A stretch of 41,762 bases of DNA from Chthoniobacterales bacterium (lineage in GTDB: Bacteria > Verrucomicrobiota > Verrucomicrobiia > Chthoniobacterales > UBA6821): the NCBI GenBank assembly GCA_044326465.1, contig JBIRBD010000001.1:1-41762 (forward strand). The letters are read 5' to 3'. Both the position numbers and the translations under genes were made by a program. Shown here one piece after another: positions 7,439 through 38,482 of this stretch (position 1 is its first letter; each line of letters starts with the position of its first letter). A model generated the notes under the pieces. That model was not told the origin of the DNA, did not search any database, and worked only from the letters and a program-made list of their open reading frames with translations.

Positions 7439-7473
7439 GTTGTTAGTTGTTGGTTGGTTTTGTTCGAAAATTT
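7439..7473 (+). repeat. Unpaired G/T-rich heptamer array, MITE-B subterminal-like fragment
   Basis: gttgtta gttgttg gttggtt ttgttcgaaaattt matches the B1 interior at 3934..3962 (gttgttagttgtttttattcgaaaaattt). It lies 16 nt from the lgt start codon, where it is C/A-rich in lgt sense, and no TIR is present. Confidence 0.55.
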
Positions 7474-7506
7474 GGGTATAAATTACAGTCTGTATTTTCT
7501 TATTTT

Positions 7507-8157
7507 ATGTTTCAACTCTTTCTCAAAGGTGGCCCTATTATGGGGCCGATTTTACTCATCTCCATCATAGCGCTCACCGTGGTGATCGAGCGAATAATCT
7601 TTCTTCTGCTGGAAGCAAAAAACAGCAACCCAAAAACTGTTAACGCAATGCTGGCAGCTGCGGAACATGACGACTACGAAAAAGCATGGAAGCTTGGCGC
7701 AGCTTCCAAGGATTTCATTGCGCGTGTACTTACGTATGGACTAGCACATCGCGCAACCTCCCTAAGCGAGGCCTTGCTCCAGGCTGCAAACCGCGAACTT
7801 TACCGTTTCAATCGAGGTCTCGCTATCCTTGACACCATCATCACTCTTGCGCCTTTATTGGGACTTCTTGGAACCGTTACCGGAATGATTCATGCTTTTA
7901 GTCTACTCGGAAATAATGAACTTAACGCACCGACAGCCATCACTGGAGGTATTGCAGAAGCCCTTATTGCAACAGCCTTCGGACTCAGTGTTGCCATTGT
8001 TGCGCTGATCCCTTTTAATTATCTTAATAGCCGTTTAGAAAAAGCACGCCTTCAAATCCAAGATGCAGCCTCTTTTCTCGAACTATGCCTGTTGAAGAGG
8101 TTACCCCCCTCAACCTCTCAACCCCTAAACTCTTTCCATGCAGATTCCATCTCTTAA
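7507..8157 (+). CDS. exbB: MotA/TolQ/ExbB proton-channel family protein
   Basis: It has three TM segments and the conserved LAPLLGLLGTVTGMI / GGIAEALIATAFGL core. The start is moved to the ATG at 7507, because the track start at 7447 is a TTG inside the repeat array. The last ~17 codons are array-derived. Confidence 0.85.
   Translation: MFQLFLKGGPIMGPILLISIIALTVVIERIIFLLLEAKNSNPKTVNAMLAAAEHDDYEKAWKLGAASKDFIARVLTYGLAHRATSLSEALLQAANRELYRFNRGLAILDTIITLAPLLGLLGTVTGMIHAFSLLGNNELNAPTAITGGIAEALIATAFGLSVAIVALIPFNYLNSRLEKARLQIQDAASFLELCLLKRLPPSTSQPLNSFHADSIS
8106..8130 (+). repeat. C-rich octamer array (CCCCTCAA CCTCTCAA CCCCTAAA) inside the exbB 3' end
   Basis: It uses the same unit as the arrays at 17250..17296 and 23491..23537. 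It ends 7 nt before the exbD ATG, and 8101..8137 contains no G. Confidence 0.7.
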
Positions 8158-8566
8158 TAGTCGTCGTAAGGCACGCATCGAAATTATCCCGCTAATCGAT
8201 ATTATTTTTTTTCTATTAGCAACCTTTGTCATGGTCTCGCTTTCCATGATTCAAAATCAAGGGATTGCTGTGCATCTGCCTAAAGCCTCCTCCGGATCAA
8301 CACAAGATCGATGCAATGACGTTACAATTACCGTAACAATCGATGGAAGTTATTTTTTTAATCACGAACCAATAACGCATGATCAGCTTTTAGATAAGCT
8401 ACTGGTTGTAAAAAAAACCTCTGTAGAACCACAGGTTTTTATCAATGCCGATACGAAGGCAGACTTTGGTTCTGTCGTCGAAGTTCTCAATGAAGTACGT
8501 AAGCAAGGTATCGAAAAAGTTGCCATTGAGACGAAACCAACTACTGATGTCATGAGTAATAGGTGA
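8138..8566 (+). CDS. exbD: Biopolymer transport protein ExbD/TolR
   Basis: The N-terminus (RRKARIEIIPLIDIIFFLLATFVMV) and a periplasmic ExbD domain are present. It overlaps the exbB end by 20 nt. Confidence 0.87.
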   Translation: MQIPSLNSRRKARIEIIPLIDIIFFLLATFVMVSLSMIQNQGIAVHLPKASSGSTQDRCNDVTITVTIDGSYFFNHEPITHDQLLDKLLVVKKTSVEPQVFINADTKADFGSVVEVLNEVRKQGIEKVAIETKPTTDVMSNR

Positions 8567-8631
8567 TTCAACGATAAATGTCTTCTCCTCATTACTCATT
8601 ACCCATTACTCGGTACTCATTACTCTTCACT
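8552..8631. repeat. Inverted heptamer-array pair spanning the exbD stop and tonB start
   Basis: The left arm atgagtaatagg (8552..8563) abuts the exbD stop codon. The right arm is six tandem heptamers, cattact cattacc cattact cggtact cattact cttcact (8590..8631), which encode TonB residues 5-18. Confidence 0.75.
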
Positions 8632-9255
8632 GCGCTTGCTTTTTTCCTCGCGGTGATTTTCCATGGCGCCCTCTTTCTTCTTGGGCGCTCCTTTTATAAG
8701 CCTCCAGAGTATGCCGTAAGAGAAGGCAATTCGAATCTAGAAGTAGGGCTTGTTGATGCGGCGTCTATGGGAAAAAATTCTTCTGCAACCATTGATGAGA
8801 AGGTAACAACTGCCAAAGTAAAACAAGCAGCAACCCTTGTTTCTGAAAAAAAACTTGAACTATCTTCCCGCACGCATCCAGGAGAAGCGAAAAAGATTTC
8901 TTCTGTTGCCTCAGAAAAAAAAATCGCTGGGCTTTTGAAGTCAGCCCCTAGCTATCTTCGTAACCCGCAACCAACCTATCCAGAAGCAGAGAGAATAAGC
9001 GGTCACGAGGGAGTTGTGTTGCTTCGTGTTGTAGTTACTAAGGAGGGAAAAATTCTAAAAGCTACCATTGAACACTCTTCAGGATATGACGCGCTCGATA
9101 AACGCGCGCTTGAAACAGTGTTAGATTCGTGGAGTTTTCGCCCTGCGCTATTAAATCAGGAGCCAGTTAAGACAGAAATTTTTATTCCAATTCATTTTTC
9201 TCTTAACTCTAAAAACTCAAATTCTAATAAAAAAGCCGGGCTCCTTAACCAATAA
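8578..9255 (+). CDS. tonB: Energy transducer TonB-family protein (in TolA-like position)
   Basis: It has an N-terminal TM anchor (LLFTALAFFLAVIFHGALFLL), a low-complexity linker and a C-terminal TonB_C domain (YPEAERISGHEGVVLLRVVVTKEGKILKATIEHSSGYDALDKRALETVLDSWSFRPA). It follows exbB-exbD. Confidence 0.78.
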   Translation: MSSPHYSLPITRYSLLFTALAFFLAVIFHGALFLLGRSFYKPPEYAVREGNSNLEVGLVDAASMGKNSSATIDEKVTTAKVKQAATLVSEKKLELSSRTHPGEAKKISSVASEKKIAGLLKSAPSYLRNPQPTYPEAERISGHEGVVLLRVVVTKEGKILKATIEHSSGYDALDKRALETVLDSWSFRPALLNQEPVKTEIFIPIHFSLNSKNSNSNKKAGLLNQ

Positions 9256-9260
9256 AAAAA

Positions 9261-9291
9261 GCAATCCTCTCTTACATAAAAAGAGGATTGC
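9261..9291. terminator. Bidirectional rho-independent terminator
   Basis: The stem is gcaatcctct / agaggattgc (10 bp) with an 11-nt loop. An A7 run precedes it and aatattttt follows, giving T-runs on both strands. It lies between convergent tonB and the 34-aa gene. Confidence 0.7.
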
Positions 9292-9316
9292 AATATTTTT
9301 GAAAAATAGAAAAGCC

Positions 9317-9421
9317 CTACGACTTGTAGCGCAACCGCTTCTTATGGCGATTAAGCTTCATGCGTTTACGGCGTTTATGTTTGGCTATTTTAGCTTTACG
9401 TTTCTTTTTAATGGATCCCAT
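9317..9421 (-). CDS. 34-aa highly basic peptide (AURKAIP1/COX24-domain-like small protein)
   Basis: My own translation of the minus strand gives MGSIKKKRKAKIAKHKRRKRMKLNRHKKRLRYKS, with the ATG at 9419..9421 and the TAG at 9317..9319. It is too short for the ORF track, and the overlapping + ORF 9299..9541 looks spurious. The family assignment is from memory of similar MGS(I/L)KKKRK..KHKRRKR peptides. Confidence 0.6.
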   Translation of the reverse strand: MGSIKKKRKAKIAKHKRRKRMKLNRHKKRLRYKS

Positions 9422-9594
9422 GGGACTTCTTTTCTGCTGACGTTAATAAATTTTGATAATCTTTTGCAAGATGAACTTACACTTTTGCGGAGAGAAGGCA
9501 ATGTCTCAAGAAGATTCTTTATTTTTTTATATCTATGGTAATCTATAACGTGGCTTGCCAAGGAACGGGATCCTGTCTTTTATCTCCTTTTTAT

Positions 9595-10302
9595 ATGCGT
9601 GAACTTATTGAAAAACTTCTTATTCTCCAACACTGTGATCAAAAAAATCGCGATGTTCTTCATTCGCTACAACAGCTTCCTCAGGAGAAATCAACCTGTG
9701 AGAGCGATCTTAAAAAATCTGATTATCAGTTAGAGCTCGCTCGCGCACGCCAGCGAGAGAATGAAATAGAACTCAAAAAACTCGAAGTCGATATTCTTTC
9801 AAAACAAGAACAGATTTTTCGTTATCGTCGTCAACAGCTTGAGACCCGAAAAAATGATGAGTATGCGGCCTTGAATCATGAGATTGCAGTTGGAGAAAAA
9901 AATATTTCTGCAATTGAAGATGCCCAGCTCGTCTTGATGGAGTTAGCGGAGACATTGTATGCTCAATTGCAGTCGGCTCAACAAGCACATCAGCTAGAGC
10001 AAACTCGAATCAATAATGTTTTAGGCTCGTTGGACCTGCGTCGTGCCAATTTGTTCGCGCGACAAGAAGAACTTGCAAAAGAGCGCTTGCGGCTTATTGA
10101 TGGCATTGACGAAGATCTTTTGGAGCGCTACGGCCGACTTTTTAAAAGCAAAAATGGAACAGCGATTGTTCCTGTAGAGCATCACACTTGCACTGGTTGC
10201 CATATGCAAGTTCCCATGCAAATAATCTTGGCAGCAAAGGCTGCTAAAGAATTAGTTCTCTGTTTGCAATGTGGAAGAGTTCTCTATTGCGAAGAAGAAT
10301 AA
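9595..10302 (+). CDS. Coiled-coil protein with C-terminal C4 zinc ribbon (COG1579/DUF164-like)
   Basis: A long heptad-rich region is followed by CTGCHMQVP...LCLQCGRVLY (CxxC-x21-CxxC). The start is moved to the ATG at 9595 (MRELIEKLL). Confidence 0.7.
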   Translation: MRELIEKLLILQHCDQKNRDVLHSLQQLPQEKSTCESDLKKSDYQLELARARQRENEIELKKLEVDILSKQEQIFRYRRQQLETRKNDEYAALNHEIAVGEKNISAIEDAQLVLMELAETLYAQLQSAQQAHQLEQTRINNVLGSLDLRRANLFARQEELAKERLRLIDGIDEDLLERYGRLFKSKNGTAIVPVEHHTCTGCHMQVPMQIILAAKAAKELVLCLQCGRVLYCEEE

Positions 10303-10319
10303 ATTTTCTTCTCTGTTAA

Positions 10320-11087
<768 letters not shown>

Positions 11088-11112
11088 AACTCCTAACCTT
11101 CTAAACTAACAC

Positions 11113-11688: not shown

Positions 11689-11858
11689 TTAACCTAAAAA
11701 CGGCAATGGATCGTTATAAATTAGCGCAATATGCTCAGCCTCAAAATGATTTTTCAACCGGCTCACGTACCTTCCAGGTATGCTTCGCCGTTTTAAAAAT
11801 CACTTTTAGACCAAGCCTTTACGCTAATTTATTAACTCCCATCACCGTTTTTAGTTAA
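11689..11858 (+). repeat. Family A palindromic element, copy A1 (170 bp)
   Basis: Its termini are ttaacctaaaaacggcaatgg ... ccatcaccgtttttagttaa. The left half pairs with the right half along the whole element (for example gttataaattagcg / cgctaatttattaac), with the apical hairpin tacct-tcc-aggta. It is ~97% identical to 41634..41762. Confidence 0.85.
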
Positions 11859-13379: not shown

Positions 13380-13383
13380 AAAA

Positions 13384-13536
13384 GGAATTGAAGTGGAAAG
13401 TTGAAGTAGAATTTGGAATATCAGCTGAGTGCAAAATTACTGGAAAAATTCAACGTTGATATTAAGTTGATGTGCCAGACGGCAAGAACTATCTTCGTTT
13501 TAAATTACTTCAACTTCAACTTTCAACTTCAACTTC
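13384..13536. repeat. Inverted 6-7-nt array pair filling the cbpA/serS divergent spacer
   Basis: The left arm is ggaattgaagtggaaagttgaagtagaattt (13384..13414). The right arm is aaatt(acttca)(acttca)(actttca)(acttca)(acttc) at 13502..13536. The arms are reverse complements in several registers (gaaagttgaag / cttcaactttc is perfect), and the core is 87 nt. Confidence 0.75.
13467..13495 (+). promoter_or_regulatory. Candidate serS promoter inside the array core
   Basis: TTGATG (13467..13472), a 17-nt spacer and TATCTT (13490..13495). This would start transcription at about 13502, making the C-rich right array the whole serS leader. It rests on a pattern match only. Confidence 0.3.
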
Positions 13537-13545
13537 TGCATTCAA

Positions 13546-15788: not shown

Positions 15789-17049
15789 TAACCTTCCCAA
15801 TATCTAGCCGGAGCTGTTTACCTTCAAAACTAATTTGATCTGCCGCGTCGTAGGCTTTGGTACGAGCTTCTGCAAGTGTTGGTCCGATTGCAGTAACGCC
15901 TAAAACACGTCCTCCACTCGTAAGGAGTTGTTCTTTTTTGCGGGTGACGCCAGCATGAAAAACGATAACATTATGATCGGCGCTTGTTGCAACCTCAATT
16001 CCTTCGATGACTTTTCCTTTTTCAATCGATCCAGGATAGCCACCGGAAGCCAAAACAATACAGATCGCAGGCTGTTCATCCCAAACAGGCTCTTGTGTTG
16101 AGAGTGTCCCATCAATCGTTGCTTCGATAAGATCAAGCAAATCACTCTTAAGACGTCGCATCAAAACCTGTGTCTCGGGATCTCCAAAACGGCAATTAAA
16201 TTCAATCACTTTCGGACCTTCTGCAGTTACCATAATTCCTGGGAAAAGCATGCCTTGAAAAAACAAGCCGTCAGCTGCAATGCCTCGCAAAAATGGTTGT
16301 AGAATTTCATCATGGATCCGTCTTTCTGTTGCAGCATCGATAGCTCCCGATGGACTAATCGTTCCCATGCCGCCTGTGTTTAAGCCTTGGTCGTTATCAA
16401 GCGCCCGTTTGTGATCGCGTGCGTCAGGAAAAAGCAAATAATTTTTGCCATCAACAAGGGCATGGAGAGAACATTCTGAGCCGACGAGGAACTCTTCAAT
16501 GACAATAGTTGCTCCTGCATCACCAAAAACCTTTTCCTCCATTGCTTGTTTGATTGCTTCAATCGCCTCAACTTGATTTTTTGCAATCACTACTCCTTTG
16601 CCAAGGGCTAGGCCATCAGCTTTAATTACGAGCGGATAGGAAGCCTTGCACGCATGATGATAGGCTTTTGTAGCGTCAGTGAATGTTGCCGAAGTAGCTG
16701 TTGGAATTCCATGGCGCACCATGAAATCTTTTGCAAAAGATTTAGACGATTCCAAACGTGCCGCCGCAGCTGTAGGGCCAAAAATTTTTATTCCAGCAGC
16801 TTGAAAAATATCCACAATTCCGGCAGCTAGTGGATCATCGGGTCCAACAATTGTTAGATCCATTTGATTTTCCTGAGCAAAGCGAAGAAGACTTCTGCTA
16901 TCAGTTGCTGCGATAGGAATATTTTCAGCTACCTGTGCTGTTCCGGAATTTCCTGGTGCACAAAAAATTTTTGTCACACGCGGACTTTGTTTTAATTTCC
17001 AAGCAAGGGCATGCTCACGACCACCAGAACCGATAATAAGAAGCTTCAT
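15772..17049 (-). CDS. purD: Phosphoribosylamine--glycine ligase
   Basis: MKLLIIGSGGREHALAWKL, an ATP-grasp core and a full-length 425 aa. Confidence 0.95.
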   Translation of the reverse strand: MKLLIIGSGGREHALAWKLKQSPRVTKIFCAPGNSGTAQVAENIPIAATDSRSLLRFAQENQMDLTIVGPDDPLAAGIVDIFQAAGIKIFGPTAAAARLESSKSFAKDFMVRHGIPTATSATFTDATKAYHHACKASYPLVIKADGLALGKGVVIAKNQVEAIEAIKQAMEEKVFGDAGATIVIEEFLVGSECSLHALVDGKNYLLFPDARDHKRALDNDQGLNTGGMGTISPSGAIDAATERRIHDEILQPFLRGIAADGLFFQGMLFPGIMVTAEGPKVIEFNCRFGDPETQVLMRRLKSDLLDLIEATIDGTLSTQEPVWDEQPAICIVLASGGYPGSIEKGKVIEGIEVATSADHNVIVFHAGVTRKKEQLLTSGGRVLGVTAIGPTLAEARTKAYDAADQISFEGKQLRLDIGKVTTPQK

Positions 17050-17115
17050 GTCGTGATGATAGTGAAAATAATGACAAAGGACAAAAACAAAGGCTCTGTT
17101 TTAAAAGTAAAAAAA

Positions 17116-17160
17116 GTTGAGGGGTTGAGGGGGTGCTGCCAAACCTCTCTCTCCCTCAAC
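17116..17160. repeat. GTTGAGGG / CCCTCAAC octamer hairpin
   Basis: gttgaggggttgaggggg (17116..17133) faces cctctctctccctcaac (17144..17160) across a 10-nt loop. The G-rich arm is 5'. Confidence 0.65.
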
Positions 17161-17172
17161 TTCGCAATTAAA

Positions 17173-17296
17173 GGGGTTTGAGGGGAAAAAAGTTGAGGGG
17201 GTGAGCATATTACGTTAATTTGTCACGATCCATTGCCGTTTTTAGATAGCCCCTCAACCTCTCAACAGCGACTTTAGTCGCGACTCAACCCCTCAA
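17173..17296. repeat. Composite: G-rich octamer arm + inverted family-A left-end fragment + module D (D2)
   Basis: 17173..17201 is ggggtttgaggggaaaaaagttgaggggg. The reverse complement of 17202..17245 equals ctaaaaacggcaatggatcgtgacaaattaacgtaatatgctca, a family A left end truncated after atatgctca. 17250..17296 is cccctcaacctctcaac-agcgactttagtcgc-gactcaacccctcaa, which is module D in reverse. It ends 8 nt before the purH ATG. Confidence 0.7.
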
Positions 17297-17304
17297 TTTT
17301 TTTT

Positions 17305-18837
17305 ATGAAAATTCAACGTGCTCTTCTTTCTGTCTCTAATAAAACAGGCCTTATCGATTTTGCTCGCGGTCTTTCTGATCGAGGAGTCGAACTCATCGCC
17401 AGTGGAGGTACAGCCAAAGCACTTGCTGCAGTTGGTATTCCTGTTAGTGAGATTTCAGACTTCACAGGCTTTCCTGAAATGATGGATGGTCGTGTTAAAA
17501 CGCTTCATCCAAAAGTCCATGGGGGATTGCTCTACCTACGCGACAATCCTACACACGTTATGGAAGCTGAAAAACATAACATCCTTCCCATTGATCTGGT
17601 TTGCGTAAATCTTTATCCGTTTGTCGAGACGATCTCAAAAAAAGGAACGACGCTTGAGGAAGCAATTGAAAAAATTGATATTGGCGGTCCTTCAATGATT
17701 CGCAGTGCTGCTAAAAATCAACATGCCGTTACTGTTGTCGTCGATCCTGCTGACTACTCACGCATTCTTGATTCTATGACGGCTCATGGAGGAAGCACAA
17801 CCCCTGAATTGCGCGCACGCCTTGCTGTAAAAGCCTTTGCATTAACGGCCTCTTATGATCATGCGATTAGCTCTTACCTTGATGGTGAAATGGTTTCGAA
17901 CAATTTGTTTTCCCTTGCGTTACCGCAAGTAAGCCACCTTCGCTACGGCGAAAATCCACATCAACAGGCAGAGCTCTATGGAGATTTCTTTGACTATTTT
18001 GAAAAGCTGCATGGCAAAGAACTTTCTTTTAATAATATTCTCGATATCACTGCGGCAACACGATTGATTTCTGAATTTCAAAAACCGACGGTTGCCATTC
18101 TAAAACATACCAACCCATGTGGTGTTGGAAGTGATATGGATCTCTGTGTCGCTTGGGAGAAGGCGTTTGCGACCGATCGTTCCGCTCCCTTTGGAGGCAT
18201 CATCATCATCAACCGACCCGTTGATGAGAATTTAGCACGTATGATTTCAGAAATTTTTAGCGAGGTAATTATTGCTCCTGAATTCACGGCTGAAGCACGG
18301 GCTCTGTTGCAAAAGAAAAAAAATCTTCGATTAATGCGCCTGATTCAAGAAATACCTACTGCGACACGCGATATTCGTTCCGTTATTGGAGGGCTTTTAA
18401 TTCAAGATGCTGACACTGATGATGGAAGTACGATTGGAAAAATGGAACATCACGTTGTCAGCAGCCGCCCACCGACTCGGGAGGAGCTTGAAGCAATGGA
18501 ATTTGGCTGGAAAGTTGTCAAACATGTGAAAAGTAATGCCATTGTTTATGTTGCCCGTGATCGCACACTTGGTATTGGTGCAGGGCAGATGTCACGCGTT
18601 GACGCCTCACGCATTGCTGTTTGGAAAGCCGCAGAAGCAGGTCTCTCGCTCAAAGGAAGCGTTGTTTGCAGCGATGCTTTCTTTCCATTTGCTGACGGCC
18701 TTGTTGCTGCCGCCGACGCTGGTGCAACAGCCGCGATTCAACCGGGTGGGTCAGTACGCGATCCTGAAGTAATTACTGCTGCCAATGAACGGGGTCTTGC
18801 AATGGTCTTTACCGGCATGCGTCATTTTAGGCACTGA
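17305..18837 (+). CDS. purH: Bifunctional AICAR transformylase / IMP cyclohydrolase
   Basis: It has the MGS-like N-terminal domain ([11 protein letters not shown]), an AICARFT domain and the C-terminal ...GMRHFRH. Confidence 0.95.
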
Positions 18838-18879: not shown

Positions 18880-19091
18880 GTAATTGCTCATCTCCTTCTG
18901 GCGAAGAAGACGAGCAAGAAGTTGTCGGTTGTCGGTTGTTCGAAAGATTTTTTTTTTAAAAATCCTATTTTATCAGCCTCTTAGGGCAACGCTTCTTTTT
19001 TAGCAGCTAAGAAAAAGTTATTTCTTCACTACCAACCGAGAACCGAGAACCAATAACCATTGCTTATCTCCAGAAGGAAATGAGCAATTAC
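18880..19091. mobile_element. MITE family B, copy B2 (212 bp)
   Basis: The TIRs are gtaattgctcatctccttctg (18880..18900) and cagaaggaaatgagcaattac (19071..19091), matching 20/21. A perfect 8-bp target-site duplication ctctggtt sits at 18872..18879 and 19092..19099. The element fills the purH/aspS convergent spacer and ends 8 nt from the aspS stop codon. Confidence 0.88.
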
Positions 19092-20896: not shown

Positions 20897-20997
20897 CAAT
20901 GCCGTCAACTTAAGGCGTTAAGTGACGGCAAGGGGTTCAGGTGACAGGGTTATAGGCTACAGGTAAGTAGGCCTACGGCAAAAAGAAAAAAATTTAT
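20897..20997 (+). repeat. Family C element, copy C2 (distal end missing)
   Basis: The sequence begins caatgccgtcaacttaag-gcg-ttaagtgacggcaagggg, in which gccgtcaacttaaggcgttaagtgacggc (20901..20929) folds as a 12-bp stem with a 1-nt bulge. A heptamer run follows (ggttcag gtgacag ggttata ggctaca ggtaagt aggccta), then cggcaaaaagaaaaaaatttat. It is collinear with C1 and C3 up to that point. Confidence 0.65.
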
Positions 20998-23304: not shown

Positions 23305-23315
23305 TCATTAAGGAA

Positions 23316-23362
23316 GTTGAGGAGTTGAGTTGCGACTACGTCGCTGTTGAGAAGTTGAGGAG
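23316..23362 (+). repeat. Module D, copy D1 (G-rich arm after the dksA-like stop)
   Basis: gttgaggagttgag-ttgcgactacgtcgc-tgttgagaagttgaggag aligns at ~85% with the reverse complement of 17250..17296. The central hairpin is gcgac-tac-gtcgc. Confidence 0.75.
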
Positions 23363-23490
23363 TTTGGAAGCGCCGCTATTGCGGTAAAATAAGAGTTTAT
23401 TTAACAGACAAAAAAATTTAAAAATTTATTCATTCAAACAGTCTTAAATAAAGACATTCAACTTCTCAAAAAATATTTACTTTAAATTTT

Positions 23491-23551
23491 TCAACCCTCT
23501 CAACCTCTCACATTTAACCCTCTCAACATCTAAACCCGCCGCGATAGCGGC
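23491..23551 (+). repeat. C-rich octamer array plus GC hairpin upstream of rpmG
   Basis: tcaaccct ctcaacct ctcacatt taaccctc tcaacatc taaaccc (23491..23537) contains no G and is the complement type of the D1 arm. It is followed by gccgc-gata-gcggc (23538..23551), which mirrors ccgc-tatt-gcgg at 23373..23384. Confidence 0.7.
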
Positions 23552-23736: not shown

Positions 23737-23981
23737 TGCTCACTCAACCTAAGACCGCAAAACGTCGTTCTAACTTTCGTCGTGCTAACCGCTCGATGCC
23801 ACATCGTCGTATCGACATTGCTACAGAAGCTATCGATTTTAAAAATCCTGATCTGCTTAAGAAATTCACTACAGAGAATGGTAAAATTCTCTCTCGTCGT
23901 ACGACTGGCGTAGCAGCTCATCTTCATCGCAAGATTACACGGGCTATTAAGCGCTCTCGTGCAGCATTGATAATGAAGTAG
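23736..23981 (+). CDS. rpsR: 30S ribosomal protein S18
   Basis: [46 protein letters not shown] is a canonical S18 core. Confidence 0.9.
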
Positions 23982-23985
23982 TACT

Positions 23986-24169
23986 ACCCGTTCAGAAGAA
24001 CGGATCAGTGAAGAGTAAAGAGTGAAGGGTAGAGAGTATTTTTAGTCTGAAATTAGACGATCATTTGAAATCTACTCTCATACAATCCCTCTTTAGAAAA
24101 CAATTAATAGAAAATTTTGTTTTCACACGATTTACTCTTTATCCTTCACAACCGTTCTGCTGAACGGTT
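23986..24169. repeat. Composite palindrome filling the rpsR/gltB convergent spacer
   Basis: The outer inverted repeat is acccgttcagaagaacgg (23986..24003) and ccgttctgctgaacggtt (24152..24169), and each half is also a local hairpin ccgttc-N4-gaacgg. The inner heptamer arrays are gtgaaga gtaaaga gtgaagg gtagaga gta (24008..24038) and tactctttatccttcac (24133..24149). Confidence 0.75.
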
Positions 24170-24173
24170 ATTG

Positions 24174-27100
24174 TTACTTCCTTGGAGTTACCGTAATCGC
24201 TTCGGTAATAATGGTTGATGTTTGCTCATCCTCTTTTTTGATTTCAACTTCGATCGGTTTTGCAACCGGAATATGAGGTGTTACTTTCCAGAAATGAGGC
24301 CGGTAGAGTTGCCAGCTTGCGGAGATTTTTTTAGCAAGCGCGCTCTCCGTTTTTTCAGCATGATCTTTAATGAGTCCGCGAAGTAACACAGCATCATCAT
24401 CGGAGGTCAATCGCTCTGCCTTGATAAGTTGTGTGTTGTACCGAGAAAGAAAATCATCTCCTGGATCAAGCACATAAGCGGTTCCGCCCGTCATGCCTGC
24501 CCCAAAGTTTTTTCCGGTTGTTCCTAAAATTAAAACCGTTCCTGCAGTCATGTATTCGCAGCCATGATCACCGATGCCTTCAATAACGGCGGTGCCACCT
24601 GAATTCCGGACGCAGAAGCGTTCGCCTGCACGACCATTTGCAAAAAGTTTTCCTCCAATTGCCCCATACATTACGGTATTTCCAATGATGCTGTTCTCTT
24701 GTGCAAGAAATTGATTGCCCTTGCGTGGGCGAATAATAATTTCTCCACCGCTCATCGATTTACCAACATAATCATTTGCTTCTCCGGTGAGGATCATGCG
24801 TAGACCTGGGGCAAGAAAGGCGCCGAAGCTTTGTCCGGCAGTTCCTTCGAGGTTGAGTGTGATTGTATCCTCGGGCAATCCTTCTTCTCCATATTGGTAG
24901 GCGATCTCTCCAGAAATTTTTGTTCCAACCGAACGATTGGTGTTATCTATTTTGTAAGAAAGTGTCACCGGCTTGCTGTCGCGAAGCGCTTCTTCAGCAT
25001 CTTGTAAAATAATATCATCGAGTGGCTGATCATGTTCCGGATCATTGCGATCACGGGTTGCATAACGCACGGCGGTTGGATCTTCTGCCACAACATCGTA
25101 AATCATGCGATCTAAATTTAGCAAGTTAGCCTTGGGATGCCCTTCAATAATGCGCTGGCGAAGGTATTCCGTGCGACCAATCATTTCATCAATTGTGCGG
25201 AACCCAAGGCGAGCCATGATTTCACGAACTTCCTGCGCAACGGCATTGAAGAAATTAACAACATTGTCAGCTTTGCCTTTAAATTTTGCACGCAAGCGAT
25301 CATCCAGCGTGGCAACACCAACAGGGCAATTATTGAGATGACATTGGCGCACATAGACGCAACCCATTGCAATAAGCGCAGTCGTTCCAAAATTATATTC
25401 TTCCGCGCCGAGCAGCGTTGCATAAACAATATCTTCGCCTGTGCGCATGCCCCCATCAGTGCGTAGTGTAACGCGGTTGCGAAGCTGATTGAGCAAGAGA
25501 ACTTGATGGGTTTCGGCTACGCCGAGTTCCCATGGACCACCTGCATTTTTAATGGAGCTTAGTGGCGAAGCGCCTGTGCCACCTTCGTGCCCACTGACGA
25601 GGATAATATCGGCATGAGCCTTGACAACACCTGCAGCAATGGTTCCGATGCCAGCCTCAGCAACCAGCTTTACACAGACGCGTGCGCGAGGATTGACTTG
25701 TTTAAGGTCGTAAATAAGCTGAGCCAGATCTTCGATCGAATAAATATCGTGATGCGGCGGCGGGGAAATCAAGGTCACACCTGCTACTGCGTGTCGTAAC
25801 TTTGCAATGTAGAAATTAACTTTTTGGCCAGGGAGTTGCCCTCCTTCACCTGGCTTGGCTCCTTGTGCCATTTTGATTTCAATTTCTTTCGCGCTCGCCA
25901 AATAAGCGGCGCTGACACCAAAGCGGCCTGAAGCAACTTGCTTGATCGCACTATTAGCCCAGTCGCCATTCTCACGCCGCTTATAACGAAGAAGATCTTC
26001 GCCACCTTCGCCAGAGTTTGATTTTCCTCCAATGCGGTTCATGGCTATTGCCAAGGTTTCATGGGCTTCTGGGCTGAGTGCGCCAAGCGACATGCCTGCT
26101 GTGGTGAAGCGTCGACGAATGTCTTCAATCGATTCTACTTCACTAAGAGGCACAGGACCCGAGGGCTTTGGCACGAAGGTCAAAAGATTGCGTAGCGAAT
26201 GAGGCGTTGAAGTCAAGGCCGCATCAACATACGCCTTGTAATCTTCTGGTTTGTTACTTCGAATAAAGGTGTGGAAATTTTTGATTACCGGCGGCGTGAC
26301 GACATGTATTTCGCCTGCACGACGAAAACGGTAATATCCCGGATCGCTTAATTTAAGAGGTTCTTCGGCTGTTTTGTCACCATAAGCAAGGTGATGTCGT
26401 GTTAAACTTTCGATGGCAATTTCTTTAAATCCGATACCTTCAATTTGTGAGGAAGTGCCAGTAAAGCATTCTGCAATCAGGGAAGAAGAAAGTCCAACGG
26501 CTTCAAATGTCTGCGCGCCGCGATAACTTGAAATCACGGAAATGCCCATTTTGGACATGATTTTGAGGAGGCCGTTTGACAACGCTTTTTTATAATTAAG
26601 AAGAGCTGTGGGATAATCAACGGTGACAGTTCCTTTTTCGTGCAACTCACGGATGGTCTCGATAGCAAGATAAGGATTAATAGCACTACAGCCGTAACCA
26701 ATGAGGCAGGCCATTTGGTGGACATCGCGGGCTTCTCCGCTTTCACAAACAAGGCTGGCTTTCATTCGTTTTCCAGCACGAATTAAATGATGATGTACGG
26801 CCGCCACTGCTAAGAGCGAAGGAATTGCTAGCTGATGTTTGTTCACACCGCGATCGCTCAAAATAATGATGCGTGCACCTTGGTCGATCGCCTCTTCGGC
26901 TTGTTGACAAAGTTTTCTTACAGCAGGCTCCAATCCTCTCTCTTCATCGACTGCATTCCACAAGGAGGAGAGGGTAACGGTCAAATGAACCCCTCCAATG
27001 TTTTTTAAAATTTCTAACTCCTCATTTAATAAAATGGGTGAATCGAGCGTGATTTGTTCTGCATGTTCTGGTGTCTCAGCAAGCAGATTGCGCTTCCAGC

Positions 27101-28948: not shown

Positions 28949-29120
28949 TTAAGCTGAAAACGGCAATGGATCGTGGTAAGTTAACGCAATATGCTCAGGC
29001 TCAAAATAAATATTTAACCGGTTTACCTACCCATTGGGTATGCTTCACCGTTTTAAAAATTATTTTTAGACTAAGCCTTTAAGTTAATTTTATCACTCCC
29101 ATCACCCTTTTTAGGTTTAA
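28949..29120 (+). repeat. Family A palindromic element, copy A2 (172 bp, diverged)
   Basis: ttaagctgaaaacggcaatggatcgtggtaagttaacgcaatatgctcagg ... cactcccatcaccctttttaggtttaa is collinear with A1. Substitutions in the left arm are mirrored in the right arm. Confidence 0.8.
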
Positions 29121-29153: not shown

Positions 29154-31769
29154 ATGTACCACCAAAACGAAAAAGTAGAGCTCATCGATGTTTCTGAGGA
29201 AATGTCGCGGTCCTTCCTCGACTACTCCATGTCGGTTATTATTTCGCGGGCACTTCCTGATGCGCGCGATGGTCTCAAACCCTCCCAACGACGTATTCTC
29301 TACGCCATGCATGAGCTCGGTGTCATGCCGACACGCAAACATCTTAAATGCGCAAAAATCGTCGGTGAGACGATGGGTAATTATCATCCTCACGGCGATC
29401 AAGCAATTTATCCAACGCTTGTTCACATGGCACAGCGTTGGGCGATGCGTGAGACATTGATCGAAGGTCAAGGAAATTTCGGTTCTGTAGAAGGTGATCC
29501 TCCAGCCTCAATGCGTTATACGGAAGCTCGTCTGAGGCCGCTTGGCGCGTTGCTCATGGAAGACATGGAACATGACACAGTGAACTTTGTTCCAAACTAT
29601 GATGATACACGAGAAGAGCCAACCGTCTTTCCTGCGGCATTCCCAAATCTTCTTGTTAATGGTGGTACTGGTATTGCTGTTGGTATGGCAACAAACATGC
29701 CGCCTCATAATTTGAGTGAAGCGATCGATGCAATTTGTGCGCAAATTGATCAGCCCGAAATCACGCTCGATGAGATCATGCACTTTATGAAAGGGCCTGA
29801 CTTTCCAACGGGTTGTCAACTCTGTGGCGTCACTGGTATTCGTCAATATTTTGAGACGGGACGCGGTTCAGTGAAGGTTCGTGGTCGTGCTGGTATTGAA
29901 GAAATCAAAGGCGGTCGTGAGCAAATCGTCATCACCGAAATTCCGTACAACGTCAATCGCGCAACACTAGTTGAAAAAATTGCAGGACTTGTTAACGAAA
30001 AAACAATTCCAGAAATCAGCGCGATTCGCGATGAATCGGATGAAAATACGCGCGTCGTTGTGGAACTGAAACGGGATGCGATTCCAAAAGTCGTCATCAA
30101 TAATCTTTACAAGTATACCGCGCTGGAATCCTCCTTTTCAGTAACAATGCTGGCGATTGATCGTGGTCGTCCAAAACTTCTCTCGCTCAAAGAAGCAATT
30201 GCATGCTTCATTGAACATCGTCGTGAAGTAATCTTGCGCCGCACCCGTTTTCTTTTGAATCAGGCAGAAGCGCGGGCCGAGAAACTCGAAGGTTATCTCA
30301 TTGCACTGGCTAACATCGATCAATTCATTAAGATCATTCGTGATTCCGTCAACCGCGAGGAAGCAAAAGTAAAATTACTTGCGTTTGAATTTACGAAAAA
30401 ACAAGTCGAGCATTTTGGAATTTTTCTGCGTCATGCAGAGCGTTTGACCGACGGCAGCTACTTGATGAGTGAGGCGCAAGTCGATGCAATTTTAGAACTA
30501 CGCCTCTATCAATTAACCGGTCTCGAGCGTGATAAAATCATCGCGGAATATACGGAGTTGTTAAAAGTTATTGCCGACCTCATCGATATTTTAAATAGTG
30601 AGGAGCGGGTGCTTAGCCTGATGAAATCAGAGCTTTTGGCAATCAAAGCAAAACATGGTCGTCCACGGTTAACCGAAATTATTTCTCAGGAAGGAGAAAT
30701 TTCTATTGAAGATCTTATTGCTAATGAAGGCTCGATCATTACTATCACGCATAAGGGATTTATTAAACGGACGGCCGTAAGCTCCTATCGCGCGCAGAGG
30801 CGCGGTGGCAAAGGCGTAATTGGCATGACAACGCGCGAGGCTTCTAGTGAAACAGATGAAGATGATTTTGTAGAACATCTTTTCACCGTGAGTACCCACG
30901 ACTATTTAGTGTTCTTTACCAAGAGTGGGCGCTGTTACGTTGAGCGTGTTTATGAAATTCCAGAAATGAGCCGTACCTCAAAAGGCCGCTCCATAGCCAA
31001 TATCCTTAATCTACAGCCAGGTGAGAAAATTGCAGCGACATTGCGCATTCAATCCAAAAACAGCGGTGGCGTTGGTGCTGTCGATACGACGTGGGATCCG
31101 AATTTTCACATCTTCTTTGCAACTCGTAGCGGTATTGTTAAAAAATCGAACCTTGGTGATTTTGCAAACATTCGCAAAGGAGGGATCATTGCCATTCAAA
31201 TTGAAGAAGGAGATGAGCTCATTAACGCTGTCCTCACTAACGGTCACGATGAAGTGGTGCTCGTCACCAAAGAAGGGCAAAGCATTCGTTTTAGTGAAGA
31301 AGAATTGCGCGATCAAGGACGCAACACCGTTGGAGTCTGGGGTATCCGTCCTGCAAAAGGAGATACGCTTGTCGCTATAGCCATCGTTTCCAATGATGCC
31401 ATGTTGCTTGTTGCCGGCGAAAATGGTATCGGCAAGCGGACAGTATTTGATGATTATCGGACGCAATCACGGGGAGGCAAAGGAATTATCACCATGAAGA
31501 CTGGTGATAAAACAGGTCTTGTCGTTGGTGCCTTGGCGGTTACTAATCATGACGAACTGATGCTAATTACAACCGGCGGCCAAATGGTCCGAACGCGTGT
31601 TGCCGAAATTCGCGAAACAGGCCGTAATACCATGGGCGTAAAATTAATTAATCTTCACGCTAGTGAAAAACTTCAGGCAATTGCTAGGGTTGTAAGTGAA
31701 ATAGAAGATAGGAAATCGGAGATAGAAGATAAGAGATCGGAGATAGAAGATAGGAGTATTGCTTCGTAA
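29154..31769 (+). CDS. gyrA: DNA gyrase subunit A
   Basis: [45 protein letters not shown], the active-site RYTEARL and C-terminal beta-pinwheel repeats are present. The last 21 codons are a 3 x 21-bp repeat ([21 protein letters not shown]). Confidence 0.96.
31698..31760 (+). repeat. 3 x 21-bp tandem repeat (heptamer-based, G/A-rich) forming the gyrA C-terminal tail
   Basis: The three units are gaaatagaagataggaaatcg, gagatagaagataagagatcg and gagatagaagataggagtatt. Each is 3 x 7 nt, so the array stays in frame. Confidence 0.85.
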
Positions 31770-31898
31770 GACGATTACAATCTCATCATTTATCAACAAT
31801 CTGTTGCTTTATCATTTATCCTAATTTTTATTTGTGATGAGTATACATCAGTCGCATTTGATTTTTAGGTTTTGTTAGTATTAGATTTCGTAAAAAAA

Positions 31899-31923
31899 CT
31901 CCTATCTTCCATCTTCTATCTCC
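31899..31923 (+). repeat. C/T-rich array complementary to the gyrA tail repeat, 6 nt upstream of the secA ATG
   Basis: The reverse complement of ctcctatcttccatcttctatctcc is ggagatagaagatggaagataggag. It gives 13 contiguous bp plus 9 bp of complementarity to 31739..31756. 31891..31929 contains no G. Confidence 0.8.
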
Positions 31924-31929
31924 TAATTA

Positions 31930-35857: not shown

Positions 35858-35884
35858 GTAAGTGTTTGCCCTCCATGCATAGCC

Positions 35885-35914: not shown

Positions 35915-36010
35915 ATTTTCTTGCTTTGTTCACGTTAAAAACTACTAATCTAGCTTCGTAGCTAATCACAGATATTCTTTTAAAAGTTAATATTTAACAA
36001 CGCTTTCCCA

Positions 36011-37420
36011 ATGAATCCGACTAAGAAAAAAACATTAAGCGTTTTCAGCCTCGTAATGATGAATGTCATTGCCATTGATAGCCTGAAAACATTATCAACT
36101 AGTGCAGAATATGGATTCTCTTTGGTCTTTTATTTTTTAGCGGCTGGACTTGTTTTCTTTGTTCCCTTAGCACTTGTCTCCGCGGAACTTGCCACAGGCT
36201 GGCCTGAGACCGGGGGTATCTACGTTTGGACGCGTGAGGCTTTCGGGAAAAAATGGGGTTTTTTTACGATCTGGTTGCAATGGTTTAATAACATCCTCTG
36301 GTTTCTGACAATAATGTCGTTTATTGCAGCGACGCTCGCTTATTGCATCAATCAAAACCTCGTCAACAATCCTTTCTATATGTTGATTGTCGTTTTTATT
36401 TTTTTCTGGGCTGCGACTATTATTAATTTTTGGGGGATTCATGCTTCTTCATTTTTTTGTAATATTGCGGCAATAGCAGGAACTATTATCCCCATGATCT
36501 TAGTTACGGTTCTCGCTGGTATTTGGATGATGATGGGAAAACCGATTTCCATTCACCTTGACTGGCATAGTTTTCTTCCTGACCTCAGCAACATCAATAA
36601 TTTGGTTTTATTAACAGCAATGCTCTATGGTTTGACGGGCATGGAGATGTCGGCCGTCCATGCAGGGGATGTTGAAAATCCACAGCACAATTATCCTAAG
36701 GCTATTTTTTGGTCGGCTCTGATTATTTTATCCACGTTGATATTATCATCCTTAGCTATCGCCTTAGTGATTCCCCAGCAACAGATCGATCTTGTTACTG
36801 CCTTATTGCAAGCGTTTCAGGTTTTCTTTACCACGTTTCATATGACCTGGTTGATGCCTATCTTGGCCTTTTTAATCATCCTCAGCTCGCTTGGTGTCTC
36901 TAATGCCTGGATCTTGGGACCAAGCAGAAGCCTGTTAATTGCAAGCCACGATAGATGCTTGCCTCAAAGCTGGGCATTCAAAAATAAACATCAGATGCCT
37001 GTTGCTATTCTTTTAATTCAAGGAGCTATTTTTACGCTTTTGTGCGCTGTTTTCTTTTTGATGCCGAGCATCAGTAGTAGCTTCTGGCTCTTAACAGATG
37101 TTGCTGCAATTTTGCAACTGATGTTTTATTTTGCGATGTTTATGACGGCTATAAAGCTTCGTTACAAATATCCTGAGGTAAAACGGACCTTCACAATACC
37201 AGGCGGAAAACCAGGCTTATGGCTGGTGTGCGGATTAGGAATGGCAGGGTGTCTTTTCACTATGGTCGTTGGATTTTTTCCACCTAGTCAAATTCCCGTC
37301 GGAAATTTAATGACTTACGAAACACTCATTATTGCTGGTATCTGCATTTGCTGCATCATTCCATTTATCTTGTATCGCCAGGCCCGCAAAAGCCGCTTGG
37401 ATGCTGGTGAACTGGCGTAA
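36011..37420 (+). CDS. APC-superfamily amino-acid permease (GadC-like glutamate/GABA antiporter family)
   Basis: It has 12 or more TM segments, and the N-terminal region resembles GadC-type transporters (GFSLVFYFLAAGLVFFVPLALVSAELATGWPETGGIYVWTREAFGKKWGF). Confidence 0.82.
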   Translation: MNPTKKKTLSVFSLVMMNVIAIDSLKTLSTSAEYGFSLVFYFLAAGLVFFVPLALVSAELATGWPETGGIYVWTREAFGKKWGFFTIWLQWFNNILWFLTIMSFIAATLAYCINQNLVNNPFYMLIVVFIFFWAATIINFWGIHASSFFCNIAAIAGTIIPMILVTVLAGIWMMMGKPISIHLDWHSFLPDLSNINNLVLLTAMLYGLTGMEMSAVHAGDVENPQHNYPKAIFWSALIILSTLILSSLAIALVIPQQQIDLVTALLQAFQVFFTTFHMTWLMPILAFLIILSSLGVSNAWILGPSRSLLIASHDRCLPQSWAFKNKHQMPVAILLIQGAIFTLLCAVFFLMPSISSSFWLLTDVAAILQLMFYFAMFMTAIKLRYKYPEVKRTFTIPGGKPGLWLVCGLGMAGCLFTMVVGFFPPSQIPVGNLMTYETLIIAGICICCIIPFILYRQARKSRLDAGELA

Positions 37421-37459
37421 AAGAAGGTATCCGTTTTTTAGGTTAAACGTTGAAAAAAA

Positions 37460-38443
37460 TTACTCTTCACCAAGATGCTTTCCGGTCATGAGATAGTTTC
37501 TAACATAGTCGCTAACAGACTGTTCGAGCGATGTCGTTTTTTCCATATAGCCTGTCGCTTTCAGAAGTGAGATGTCAGCACAGGTGTAATATTGATATTG
37601 ATCACGAAGTTTTTCAGGCATCTCGATAAATTCAATCGCCGGCTCACGGCCAAGTGCTCTGAATAAAGCTGTTGCAAGAGCAATCCAAGTGCGGGGTTTG
37701 CCAGTGCCGATATTAAAAAGTCCTTTTGCGCTTTTGGTATCAGCAAGATGAAGCGTCATTGCAACAGCATCTTTAACATAAACAAAATCGCGCACCTGCT
37801 CACCATCGCGATAATCAGAATGGTAACTTTTGAAAAGACGTACTTTTCCTGTCTCCATGATTTGCTCATAGGCTTTAGAAACAAGGCTACGCATCTCTTT
37901 TTTGTGACCTTCGTTTGGTCCAAAGACATTAAAATATTTTAACCCAACGATGCGATCGAACCACCCCATTTCACGGGCATAGAGATCAAAAAGTTGTTTT
38001 GATTCTCCATACAAATTAAGCGGCCTCAATTTTTCTATTTTCTCGATGCCATCGTTCATTCCTTCGGAACCGTCGCCATAAGTGGCTGCAGAACTTGCGT
38101 AGACAAATCGTACATCACGCAGCAAGGCCCACTCAGCCAAACGCTTTGTATACTCAAAATTATTTTCCATCAAATAATCGCGATTCGTTTCTGTCGTCGA
38201 AGAACAGGCTCCTAAATGAAAAATCGTCTTAATACCTTGTAGCGATAACGGATTTTTATCCAAAGCTTTTAGCAAAGCATCTGCCGAAAGATATTCTGTA
38301 TACTTGAGCGGGCGAAGATGCTGTTTTTTCTCTTCATCAAGCAAAACATCCGTCACAAGAATTTCTGTTTCGCCTCGCTCGTTGAGCGCATGAATAAGTG
38401 CACTTCCAATAAATCCTGCGCCACCGGTTACTATTATTTTCAT
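37460..38443 (-). CDS. hldD: ADP-L-glycero-D-manno-heptose 6-epimerase
   Basis: MKIIVTGGAGFIGSALIHALNERG (Rossmann fold), the SDR catalytic pattern SSAATYG...YGESK, and length and C-terminus typical of HldD/RfaD. Confidence 0.87.
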   Translation of the reverse strand: MKIIVTGGAGFIGSALIHALNERGETEILVTDVLLDEEKKQHLRPLKYTEYLSADALLKALDKNPLSLQGIKTIFHLGACSSTTETNRDYLMENNFEYTKRLAEWALLRDVRFVYASSAATYGDGSEGMNDGIEKIEKLRPLNLYGESKQLFDLYAREMGWFDRIVGLKYFNVFGPNEGHKKEMRSLVSKAYEQIMETGKVRLFKSYHSDYRDGEQVRDFVYVKDAVAMTLHLADTKSAKGLFNIGTGKPRTWIALATALFRALGREPAIEFIEMPEKLRDQYQYYTCADISLLKATGYMEKTTSLEQSVSDYVRNYLMTGKHLGEE

Positions 38444-38452
38444 AACAGTGAA

Positions 38453-38482
38453 GGCTACAGCCTACAGGCTACAGGTTACAGG
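38453..38482 (+). repeat. Unpaired heptamer array GGCTACA GCCTACA GGCTACA GGTTACA GG
   Basis: These are four tandem heptamers 9 nt from the hldD start codon, where they read cctgtaa cctgtag cctgtag gctgtag in hldD sense. They are related to the heptamer runs inside family C (ggctaca ggtaagt). Confidence 0.7.

Follow-up and report, generated by a model that had tools for sequence, protein, structure and literature searches.

Palindromic pairs of short tandem-repeat arrays in a Chthoniobacterales genome: candidate MITE-like insertions with a start-linked polarity

Spacers between genes in a 41,762-nt stretch of a Chthoniobacterales bacterium genome (contig JBIRBD010000001.1, positions 1 to 41,762; hereafter, the window) contain tandem arrays with a period of 6-8 nt, several of which face a reverse-complementary array nearby, so that the two constitute the G-rich and the C-rich arm of a palindrome. 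We favor, with somewhat better than even confidence, the interpretation that these elements are palindromic insertions resembling miniature inverted-repeat transposable elements (MITEs), which have been filtered or co-opted such that the arm next to the start codon serves as an unstructured leader lacking a Shine-Dalgarno (SD) site. The observations behind this interpretation are the anatomy of the elements, their family structure, insertion polymorphism in relatives, a polarity that is conditional on the proximity of start codons, and the absence of SD motifs accompanied by G depletion.

In all pairs of the window, the G-rich arm comes first. Counted by the ~6-7 independent families to which the pairs belong, rather than by nine pairs, this regularity corresponds to p ~0.02-0.03 only. 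We therefore rely on a survey of inverted repeats in 570 spacers from the window and ~110 related loci (~1.3 Mb; the sequences of relatives carry L-numbers, e.g., L008, L123 and L128, and include a freshwater clade and a soil clade). The best inverted repeat of each spacer was compared with 40 dinucleotide shuffles and orthologous duplicates were removed, yielding 64 non-redundant significant repeats. When an arm is located within 40 nt of a start codon, G-first repeats outnumber C-first repeats 19:4 at an absolute G-C difference of at least 2 (p = 0.003) and 11:1 at a difference of at least 4 (p = 0.006). Away from starts, the corresponding ratios are 9:10 and 6:7. Most of the C-first repeats in the survey are CTCTTC/GAAGAG hairpins with a short loop that follow stop codons in soil genomes. 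The original prediction, made from the sequence of the window, considered the polarity to be fixed in all contexts and named such a survey as its test; the rule holds next to starts but not elsewhere in the relatives. These results support the conclusion that the polarity is conditional on start-codon adjacency and linked to translation.

A palindrome is the same from either side, so that G-first is the sole polarity which provides starts on both sides with a G-poor arm. Hence, the invariance of the polarity in tandem and divergent contexts is explained by the need for a G-poor leader, without invoking pairing of the arms. An earlier approach, in which arrays called in the relatives by Tandem Repeats Finder (TRF) were classed in a gene-aware manner using greedy calls of open reading frames (ORFs), gave 16:12 for 5'-proximal arrays; because of excessive noise in the soil genomes with their high GC content, it was dropped in favor of the inverted-repeat survey and a test anchored on serS (see below).

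SD-like motifs (GGAG/GAGG/AGGA at positions -20 to -4) precede only 3 of the 28 window genes. The G content of positions -40 to -1 is 12.1%, against 21.9% genome-wide, with C at 23.7% in the same positions, and the first 40 nt after stops contain 18% G. Half of the leaders (14/28) have at most 2 G in 30 nt, and a single one has at most 2 C. The initiation regions (-40 to +20) fold at a mean of -4.8 kcal/mol, compared to -9.9 kcal/mol for random 60-mers (p = 1e-8). Among the freshwater relatives, leaders contain 16.5% G versus 26%, and SD-like motifs were found in 6 of 60 genes. Verrucomicrobiales have been reported to lack SD sequences globally (PMC10798248), and SD-independent initiation in Bacteroidia and Verrucomicrobiales is associated with scarce SD motifs and unstructured, G-poor upstream sequence (PMC10798248; PMC10783764). 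Against this background of G-poor leaders with few SD motifs, the C-rich and almost G-free arrays represent the extreme of a rule that applies to leaders throughout the genome. The idea of unstructured, SD-independent leaders, already part of the original prediction, is strengthened by these figures and by the start-linked polarity.

TRF called arrays with periods of 6-8 nt at 8588, 13507, 17116, 18921, 19034, 23346, 23491, 24007, 31701 and 38452; the remaining previously described arrays, including those at 7439 and 8106, were recognized by eye. The elements of the window are the following:

3886..4102, unstranded: MITE B copy 1, in the spacer from the pal stop to the start of the degT-like gene; perfect 22-bp terminal inverted repeats (TIRs), GTAATTGCTCATCTCCTTCTGA; subterminal arrays 3927-3947 (GTTGTCG GTTGTTA GTTGTTT) and 4049-4068, which make up pair 8; 8-bp target duplication, CATTGGAC / CGTTGGAC, at 3878-3885 and 4103-4110
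4676..4704, minus strand: short GTTGAGG-type array of the pal leader, C-rich when read in the direction of pal and ending ~25 nt upstream of its ATG (4654)
7439..7473, minus strand: unpaired array in the lgt leader (GTTGTTA GTTGTTG GTTGGTT..), with a unit resembling the MITE B arrays
8106..8130, plus strand: unpaired GTTGAGG-family array, CCCTCAAC CTCTCAAC CCCTAAAC, before the tolR/exbD ATG
8545..8631, plus strand: pair 1 (weak); the 3' end of tolR carries a GAGTAAT-type remnant, and the right array, (CTCATTA)x5.4, is at 8588-8625
13383..13540, unstranded: pair 2, a palindrome filling the divergent cbpA-serS spacer; G-arm 13383-13414, C-arm (ACTTCA/ACTTTCA)x5 13502-13540
17108..17305, unstranded: pairs 3 and 4, GTTGAGG family, in the divergent purD-purH spacer; G-arms 17108-17133 and 17173-17205, C-arms 17144-17160 and 17250-17296, the latter a 47-nt module of arrays around a GCGAC..GTCGC hairpin, ending before the purH ATG
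18880..19091, unstranded: MITE B copy 2 (pair 9), in the convergent purH-aspS spacer; arrays 18921-18940 (GTTGTCG x2.7) and 19031-19058 (AACCGAG x2.6); perfect 8-bp target duplication, CTCTGGTT
23314..23538, unstranded: pair 5, in the spacer from the dksA-like gene to rpmG; the G-arm module 23316-23364, beginning 11 nt downstream of the stop, shares ~90% identity with 17250-17296 in reverse complement; C-arm 23491-23537
23972..24183, unstranded: pair 6, a large palindrome filling the convergent rpsR-gltB spacer; outer CCGTTC..GAACGG hairpins, then G-arm 24007-24038 (GTGAAGA GTAAAGA..) and C-arm 24133-24149
31698..31926, unstranded: pair 7, from gyrA to secA; the G-arm 31698-31762, with a super-period of 21 nt, codes for a GyrA tail, (SEIEDRK)x3; C-arm 31893-31926
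38452..38482, minus strand: unpaired (AGGCTAC)x4.4 array upstream of the hldD ATG, self-complementary and not G-poor

The start-side arrays end 7 nt (tolR), 16 nt (lgt), 4 nt (cbpA), 9 nt (serS), 8 nt (purH), 25 nt (rpmG), 6 nt (secA) and 9 nt (hldD) before the respective start codons, so that the gaps of 4-26 nt in the initial description stand for these eight genes. The lgt array, read on the minus strand, is a G-poor leader, and each arm of pair 2 is the G-free leader of the gene it adjoins. The claim that all these arrays are C-rich and nearly G-free does not extend to hldD, with 8 G and 9 C, and the array formerly attributed to pal (4049-4068) lies downstream of that gene, the one near its start being at ~4680. 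Sixteen internal spacers of the window are at least 100 nt long; 7 of them contain a pair, 9-10 contain any array and four others carry a different MITE, so the pairs do not occupy most of the long spacers, as had been thought.

Some of the arrays are located within coding sequence, namely, in the tail of gyrA, in the C-terminal tail of the tolQ ORF (8106-8130) and in the first ~18 codons of the tonB-like gene. The gyrA ORF continues through the G-arm array (31698-31769) as a charged C-terminal tail outside the alignments with GyrA homologs (93-96% query coverage). Given the 7-nt period of the 8588-8625 array, gain or loss of a unit would put the tonB-like gene out of frame, so that the array could potentially act as an on/off switch.

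The units, originally described as specific to their loci, turned out to be partly shared. In a cross-locus matrix, the G-arm 23316-23364 scores 62 against the C-arm 17250-17296, versus 19 against its own partner. The 47-nt module, present at 17250 and 23316 in copies that are ~90% identical, occurs at these sites as inverted doublets with a small GC hairpin. GTTGAGG-type arrays are additionally present at 8106 and ~4680; overall, the GTTGAGG module was found at 3-4 loci, and the GTTGAGG and GTTGTYG unit types each recur at three or more loci. Pairs 2 and 7 alone are private to their own locus in the available 41.7 kb. Homology between the loops of different elements was detected only for the two MITE B copies and, weakly, for the GTAAAGA-family copies.

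The original prediction overlooked the probable nature of these elements as insertions with a family structure, to which target-site duplications and the existence of empty and filled versions of the same junction point. The window's own loci can be compared only with relatives at no more than 80% identity, whereas closer comparisons are available among the relatives themselves. The iscA-like/hscB-like junction exists in four states among close relatives in which the upstream protein is 93-100% identical: empty (TAA TT GTG), filled with a 100-nt GGGATGAAG palindrome, filled with a 188-nt GGAACTCA palindrome, or filled with a 69-nt insert consisting of an array and a hairpin; the two palindromes are unrelated to each other. 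In the freshwater clade, individual genomes carry arms of the GGAACTCA type with an ATATGG terminus at several loci. Similarly, the spacer from dksA to rpmG is 29 nt long and G-poor in L128, versus 258 nt with pair 5 in the window. The gyrA-secA spacer of L123 (GyrA 81% identical) has the architecture of pair 7, with the G-arm over the gyrA stop and the C-arm adjoining the secA ATG, but its unit is GTGAAGA/GTAAAGA, of the family that is represented in the window by pair 6 (rpsR/gltB) and that also occurs at a second locus of L123, i.e., at two loci of this relative besides the window. Both copies of MITE B combine perfect TIRs with 8-bp target duplications; no duplication is recognizable for pairs 2, 5, 6 and 7, and no transposase gene was found in the window. 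Insertion into very short junctions would explain the immediate proximity of the arms to the stop on one side and to the start on the other.

Two observations speak for a function of the start-side arm. In three orthologous spacers of the freshwater clade, the 45 nt comprising the C-arm and leader (TTCTTGAGTTCCTGAGTTCCATAT..TTTTCTGTTTCTGAT) are 100% identical, although the sequences diverge in the loop, in the distal G-arm, where indels occur, and even in the first codons. Furthermore, an array is located directly upstream of the serS ATG in 12 of 52 non-redundant relatives, compared to 2.2% of random intergenic 70-mers, an approximately ten-fold enrichment across genera. The units of the serS arrays differ among the relatives (ACTTCA(A), CTTTTCA, TTTCAGG, TTTCAGC, ATTCGTC, ACATTCG and AATTCTGTT) and their copy number varies from 4 to 6 among close relatives, but the array is kept with serS despite changes of the upstream neighbor.

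The sole gene-bearing relative of these elements that we found is a cassette between gyrB and gyrA of soil Chthoniobacterales (L127 8425-8881; also L129-L140, e.g., L137 1477-1960), which encodes a GxxExxY protein of 139-145 aa (TIGR04256, PF13366 PDDEXK_3, PD-(D/E)XK fold), a family of unknown function (PMC3424549). The gene is flanked by inverted tandem 9-mers, in the order TTTAG, ACAGGATTA ACAGGATTT ACGGGATTG ... AATCC.GTAAATCC.GTTAATCCTGT, CTAAA, which reach from the gyrB stop to 11-14 nt before the gyrA start and are G-first. Orthologs differ by one double compensatory change, with ACGGGATTT on both arms in one case and ACAGGATTT on both arms in the other; in further orthologs, one arm is degenerate. 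ORF-less elements with the same arms and terminus are present in L125 (11431-11614, after gyrA) and L008 (1029-1093, between cbpA and serS), and no remnants of a GxxExxY ORF were detected in the loops of the window elements (tblastn E > 1). Because all gene-bearing copies retrieved represent the same orthologous gyrB-gyrA locus, mobility of the cassette is not shown. A joint reading that we consider quite improbable would unite the palindromes and the cassettes in an undescribed class of mobile elements of operon junctions, with insertion sites precisely between the stop of one gene and the start of the following one. Pairing of their arms at the mRNA level would rejoin stop to start or let the insert be excised, and the start-side arm would double as the SD-less leader; the GxxExxY nuclease would mobilize or bind the arrays, with the ORF-less copies being its MITE derivatives.

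To what extent the arms match each other was assessed by searching for a reverse-complementary partner within 250 nt of each array, using ~400 genomic windows and 200 dinucleotide shuffles as controls. The partner is clearly non-random for pair 2 (score 38, p=0), pairs 3/4 (25-29, p<=0.005), pair 7 (33-37, p=0) and pair 9 (26, p=0), and marginal for pair 5 (19-24, p 0.005-0.035), pair 6 (24, p 0.005-0.01), pair 8 (17, p 0.01-0.02) and pair 1 (19, p 0.02-0.03). Thus, five or six of the nine inverted pairs proposed clearly exceed chance, with p<=0.005 for 2, 3/4, 7 and 9, and the others are borderline. The arrays at 7439, 8106 and 38452 have no partner within 250 nt, in agreement with their description as unpaired. 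Local homogenization of the arms, one of the explanations offered at the outset, is contradicted by MITE B copy 2, in which GGTTGTC is opposite GGTTCTC with the same mismatch in every unit. In pair 2, the right arm has two units more than the left one. The per-unit mismatch, the unequal number of units and the decay of the distal arm therefore indicate a common origin of the arms rather than homogenization, and it is evident that slippage occurs within arms, which expand independently.

The array pairs were also considered as intrinsic (Rho-independent) terminators, which combine a short GC-rich stem, a loop of 3-8 nt and a U-tract. A terminator scan called none of them, and this reading was rejected given the loops of 10-170 nt and the lack of a T-run after the C-arms; proper terminator-like hairpins are located elsewhere in the window (6358-6437 and 9261-9291).

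Under the interpretation that we favor, small non-coding, MITE-like palindromes, whose arms are slippage-prone tandem repeats of 6-9 nt, would insert at gene junctions. They would land in, or survive only in, short junctions, with one arm at the upstream stop and the other at the downstream start. A lineage that does not use SD sites would need G-poor, weakly structured sequence before its start codons; next to starts, only G-first elements would offer an acceptable leader on either side and hence persist, so that the G-first orientation would follow from the requirement for a G-poor start-side arm. After insertion, this C/U/A-rich arm would become a conserved 5' leader, perhaps a standby site of the S1 type, and the distal G-rich arm would be largely a relic, with unit sequence and copy number subsequently drifting by slippage in each arm. 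What mobilizes the elements is left to inference.

Several observations weigh against this interpretation. Leaders with arrays are as structured as the other leaders, so that the tandem nature itself is left unexplained, and some start-side arrays (hldD, purH and rpmG) are not G-poor or are structured. We infer, from sequence, that the start-side C-arm lies in the 5' untranslated region, where it would promote SD-independent initiation; a scan for promoters with the sigma-70 consensus gave 29 + 28 hits versus 27.6 + 30.1 expected, i.e., chance level. The role of a leader is not the sole one either, because the serS arrays of the soil clade overlap the promoter of a probably leaderless mRNA: the TTCGTCA array provides a TTGTCA-like -35 element 16-17 nt upstream of a -10 box that precedes the ATG by 6-7 nt. 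Only for MITE B and for the families GTTGAGG, GTAAAGA and GGAACTCA could target duplications and extra copies be shown; the available sequence has one copy each of pairs 2 and 7, neither with a visible duplication. Finally, the compensatory change in the GxxExxY arms hints that pairing can matter.

If pairing itself were the function, which appears rather unlikely, the G-arm after a stop and the C-arm before the next start would pair in read-through or polycistronic RNA, and thereby insulate transcription units, create an RNase III processing site or couple stop and start with the insert looped out. Consistent with this possibility, the RNA of spacers 2, 5 and 7 forms hairpins over a long range (z = -3.7 to -5.1), the arms closely abut stop and start codons, some loops (29-57 nt) are too short for a promoter, the orthologous gyrA-secA spacers keep complementary arms despite the different unit, and the GxxExxY arms show the double change noted above. 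However, there is no strand asymmetry of folding that would signal selection at the RNA level: z is alike on both strands, as expected of any DNA palindrome. Moreover, the distal arm decays through substitutions and indels while the start-side arm is invariant in the three-way comparison of orthologs, mismatches between arms are systematic (MITE B copy 2), and many leader arrays have no partner (7439, 8106, 38452 and most serS arrays of the relatives). In divergent spacers, a single transcript would include both arms only if the promoters were very distal. Selection for arm pairing, as originally envisaged, is thus not demonstrated.

We also regard it as unlikely that the arrays are neutral debris, that is, remnants of simple sequences or MITEs tolerated without being used, whose polarity would merely reflect purifying selection against SD-like or structure-forming G upstream of starts. 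The junctions work when empty, units and copy numbers turn over rapidly, and the equal structure of leaders with and without arrays fits this explanation, as does the report that heptamers are the commonest class of long simple sequence repeats (SSRs) in many bacteria, a predominance that has been put down to slippage of the polymerase (Mrazek 2007, summarized in PMC4679880). Debris would not be expected to include a C-arm and leader perfectly conserved over 45 nt between a varying spacer and varying first codons, nor to be enriched upstream of serS across genera despite the turnover of units and neighbors. Action at the DNA level is, in our view, very improbable; the arrays would then be tandem -35-like or UP-like promoter elements, or, as subterminal repeats, sites for a transposase or regulator, and the palindrome would represent a bidirectional promoter architecture or transposase-end recognition. 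Several G-arm units do contain TTG(A/T) (GTTGAGG, TTGAAGT and GTTGTCG), the soil-clade serS array yields a -35-like element, the MITE B arrays are subterminal and adjoin the TIRs, and arrays flank a gene of the PD-(D/E)XK family in relatives. In contrast, promoter-consensus matches are at chance level, the variety of units between loci is too great for one DNA-binding protein, arrays extend into coding sequence, and conservation is strongest in the strand-specific, G-poor, start-adjacent arm.

The interpretation as MITE-like insertions that furnish leaders invites comparison with known repeats. Like MITEs, REPINs (inverted, high-copy doublets of short repetitive extragenic palindromes, REPs) and bacterial interspersed mosaic elements (BIMEs), the elements are small (100-260 bp), non-coding and intergenic, have inverted, hairpin-forming arms (significant for pairs 2, 3/4, 7 and 9, with TIRs in MITE B), comprise several families, some of them with more than one copy per genome, and are present or absent at orthologous sites. 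They differ in that the arms are short tandem arrays that grow and shrink, that most copies lack a clear target duplication or conserved terminus, and that no cognate transposase or REP-associated tyrosine transposase (RAYT) gene was seen in the 41.7 kb. To our knowledge, neither MITEs nor REPINs have been described to adopt a fixed G-first orientation next to starts. Short tandemly repeated repetitive (STRR) sequences of cyanobacteria, such as the heptamer CCCCAGT, reportedly consist of few fixed units in heterocystous cyanobacteria. STRRs are not known to be defined by a start-linked polarity or a paired inverted architecture, and because the units and the taxon (here, Verrucomicrobiota) differ, the window arrays are members of neither the STRR family nor the TAACTGA family discussed below. 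Lineage-abundant, intergenic heptamers with slippage-variable copy number are nevertheless common to our arrays, the STRRs and long SSRs (LSSRs, 5-11 nt), to judge from the summary of Mrazek 2007 in PMC4679880.

The closest positional analogy is with the TAACTGA repeats of marine Beggiatoaceae (MacGregor 2015, PMC4679880), tandem heptamers close to the starts of SD-less genes. These repeats are in the forward orientation a few nucleotides from starts, including those of housekeeping genes, and a role in translation has been proposed (PMC4679880). Beggiatoaceae, from a different phylum, have one genome-wide unit, with only one inverted set reported, whereas here there are many unit families, and no unit of the window is TAACTGA. 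Studies of SD-independent initiation (PMC10798248; PMC10783764) explain the composition rule behind the polarity, but describe composition rather than leaders built of repeats or derived from transposons, and did not specifically analyze Chthoniobacterales. The phase-variable SSRs of contingency loci are found in the promoter or the 5' coding part of surface or virulence genes, whose expression is switched by changes in repeat length; here, copy number varies in relatives and the tonB-like gene contains a coding array, and the genes concerned are mostly housekeeping. In sum, the elements resemble MITEs and REPINs in origin and TAACTGA leader repeats in position, and belong to the broad class of heptamer-rich LSSRs and STRRs; the combination of arms built from tandem repeats, a multitude of unit families and an orientation dictated by leaders without SD sites appears undescribed in the literature searched. 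If our interpretation is correct, bacteria that do not use SD sites can accommodate mobile palindromes in the tight junctions of operons and even put them to use as translation leaders, and a simple rule (no G upstream of the start) can orient selfish DNA genome-wide. The sequences of the window would then provide testable material for SD-independent initiation in Verrucomicrobia, and a link of inverted ends built of tandem repeats with the uncharacterized, highly expanded GxxExxY nuclease family appears possible.

The genes of the window are housekeeping genes: xseA, pal, tolB, lgt, tolQR, tonB-like, pyrH, frr, cbpA, serS, tilS, purD, purH, aspS, hisS, dksA-like, rpmG, rpsR, gltB, gyrA, secA, hldD, secDF and yajC. 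In a search of the window against Rfam at the gathering threshold, tRNA-Thr alone was matched. The relatives identified through SerS and GyrA all belong to the order Chthoniobacterales ('Spartobacteria') of Verrucomicrobiota, with best identities of 69-80% for SerS (the 80% being a partial match) and 85% for the C-terminal part of GyrA. A search of sequence collections for very close relatives found none; an exact match to a window protein was found on one contig alone, a Logan contig of 7 kb that itself represents part of the window. The protein encoded at 9535-10302 resembles the model of the chlamydial zinc-ribbon regulator CdsZ (NF047363; E = 6e-18, 65 bits versus a cut-off of 275). The affinity with Chlamydiae that this match brought to mind was rejected, all SerS and GyrA relatives being Chthoniobacterales.

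Some promoter and leader sequences of these genomes were recorded in passing. The leaders of frr (11088-11112), secDF (40936-40960, minus strand) and secA (31893-31910) have a common motif, AAAAACTCCTA(A/T)C, directly before the ATG. Upstream of purD (17047-17084, minus strand), TTGTCC and TATCAT are separated by 17 nt, and 6 nt further the ATG follows; in the soil clade (L016, L018, L020, L022, L025, L060 and others), the box 6-7 nt before the serS ATG is TACAAT, GATAAT or CATACT. By their position, these boxes suggest that leaderless mRNAs may exist in Chthoniobacterales.

Other repeats are present in the window as well. MITE A, a second MITE-like family of ~160 nt, is found at 4793-4954, 11694-11854, ~28951-29113 and 41640-41762 (this last copy being truncated where the window stops); it has the ends CTAAAAACG...CGTTTTTAG, its inner palindrome is GCTCAGCCTCAAAATGATTTTT..AAAAATCATTTTTAGACCAAGC, and its arms have no G/C skew. 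A third dispersed repeat, AAGTGACGGCAAGGGG(T/C).. or its reverse complement CCCCTTGCCGTCACTTAA, occurs at 1-30, 218-250, 20918-20950 and 41489-41512 and often adjoins CCTG.CA.CTG arrays. The dksA-like gene has a long N-terminal extension that contains, at 22568-22694, perfect in-frame tandem repeats of 18 nt (x2) and 39 nt (x2). The hairpin at 6358-6437, between tRNA-Thr and lgt, is bidirectional and terminator-like, with A/T runs. The region 9261-9421 contains a tiny ORF for a basic protein of 34 aa (MGSIKKKRKAKIAKHKRRKRMKLNRHKKRLRYKS), convergent with the tonB-like gene, and a 13-bp terminator-like hairpin lies between the two.

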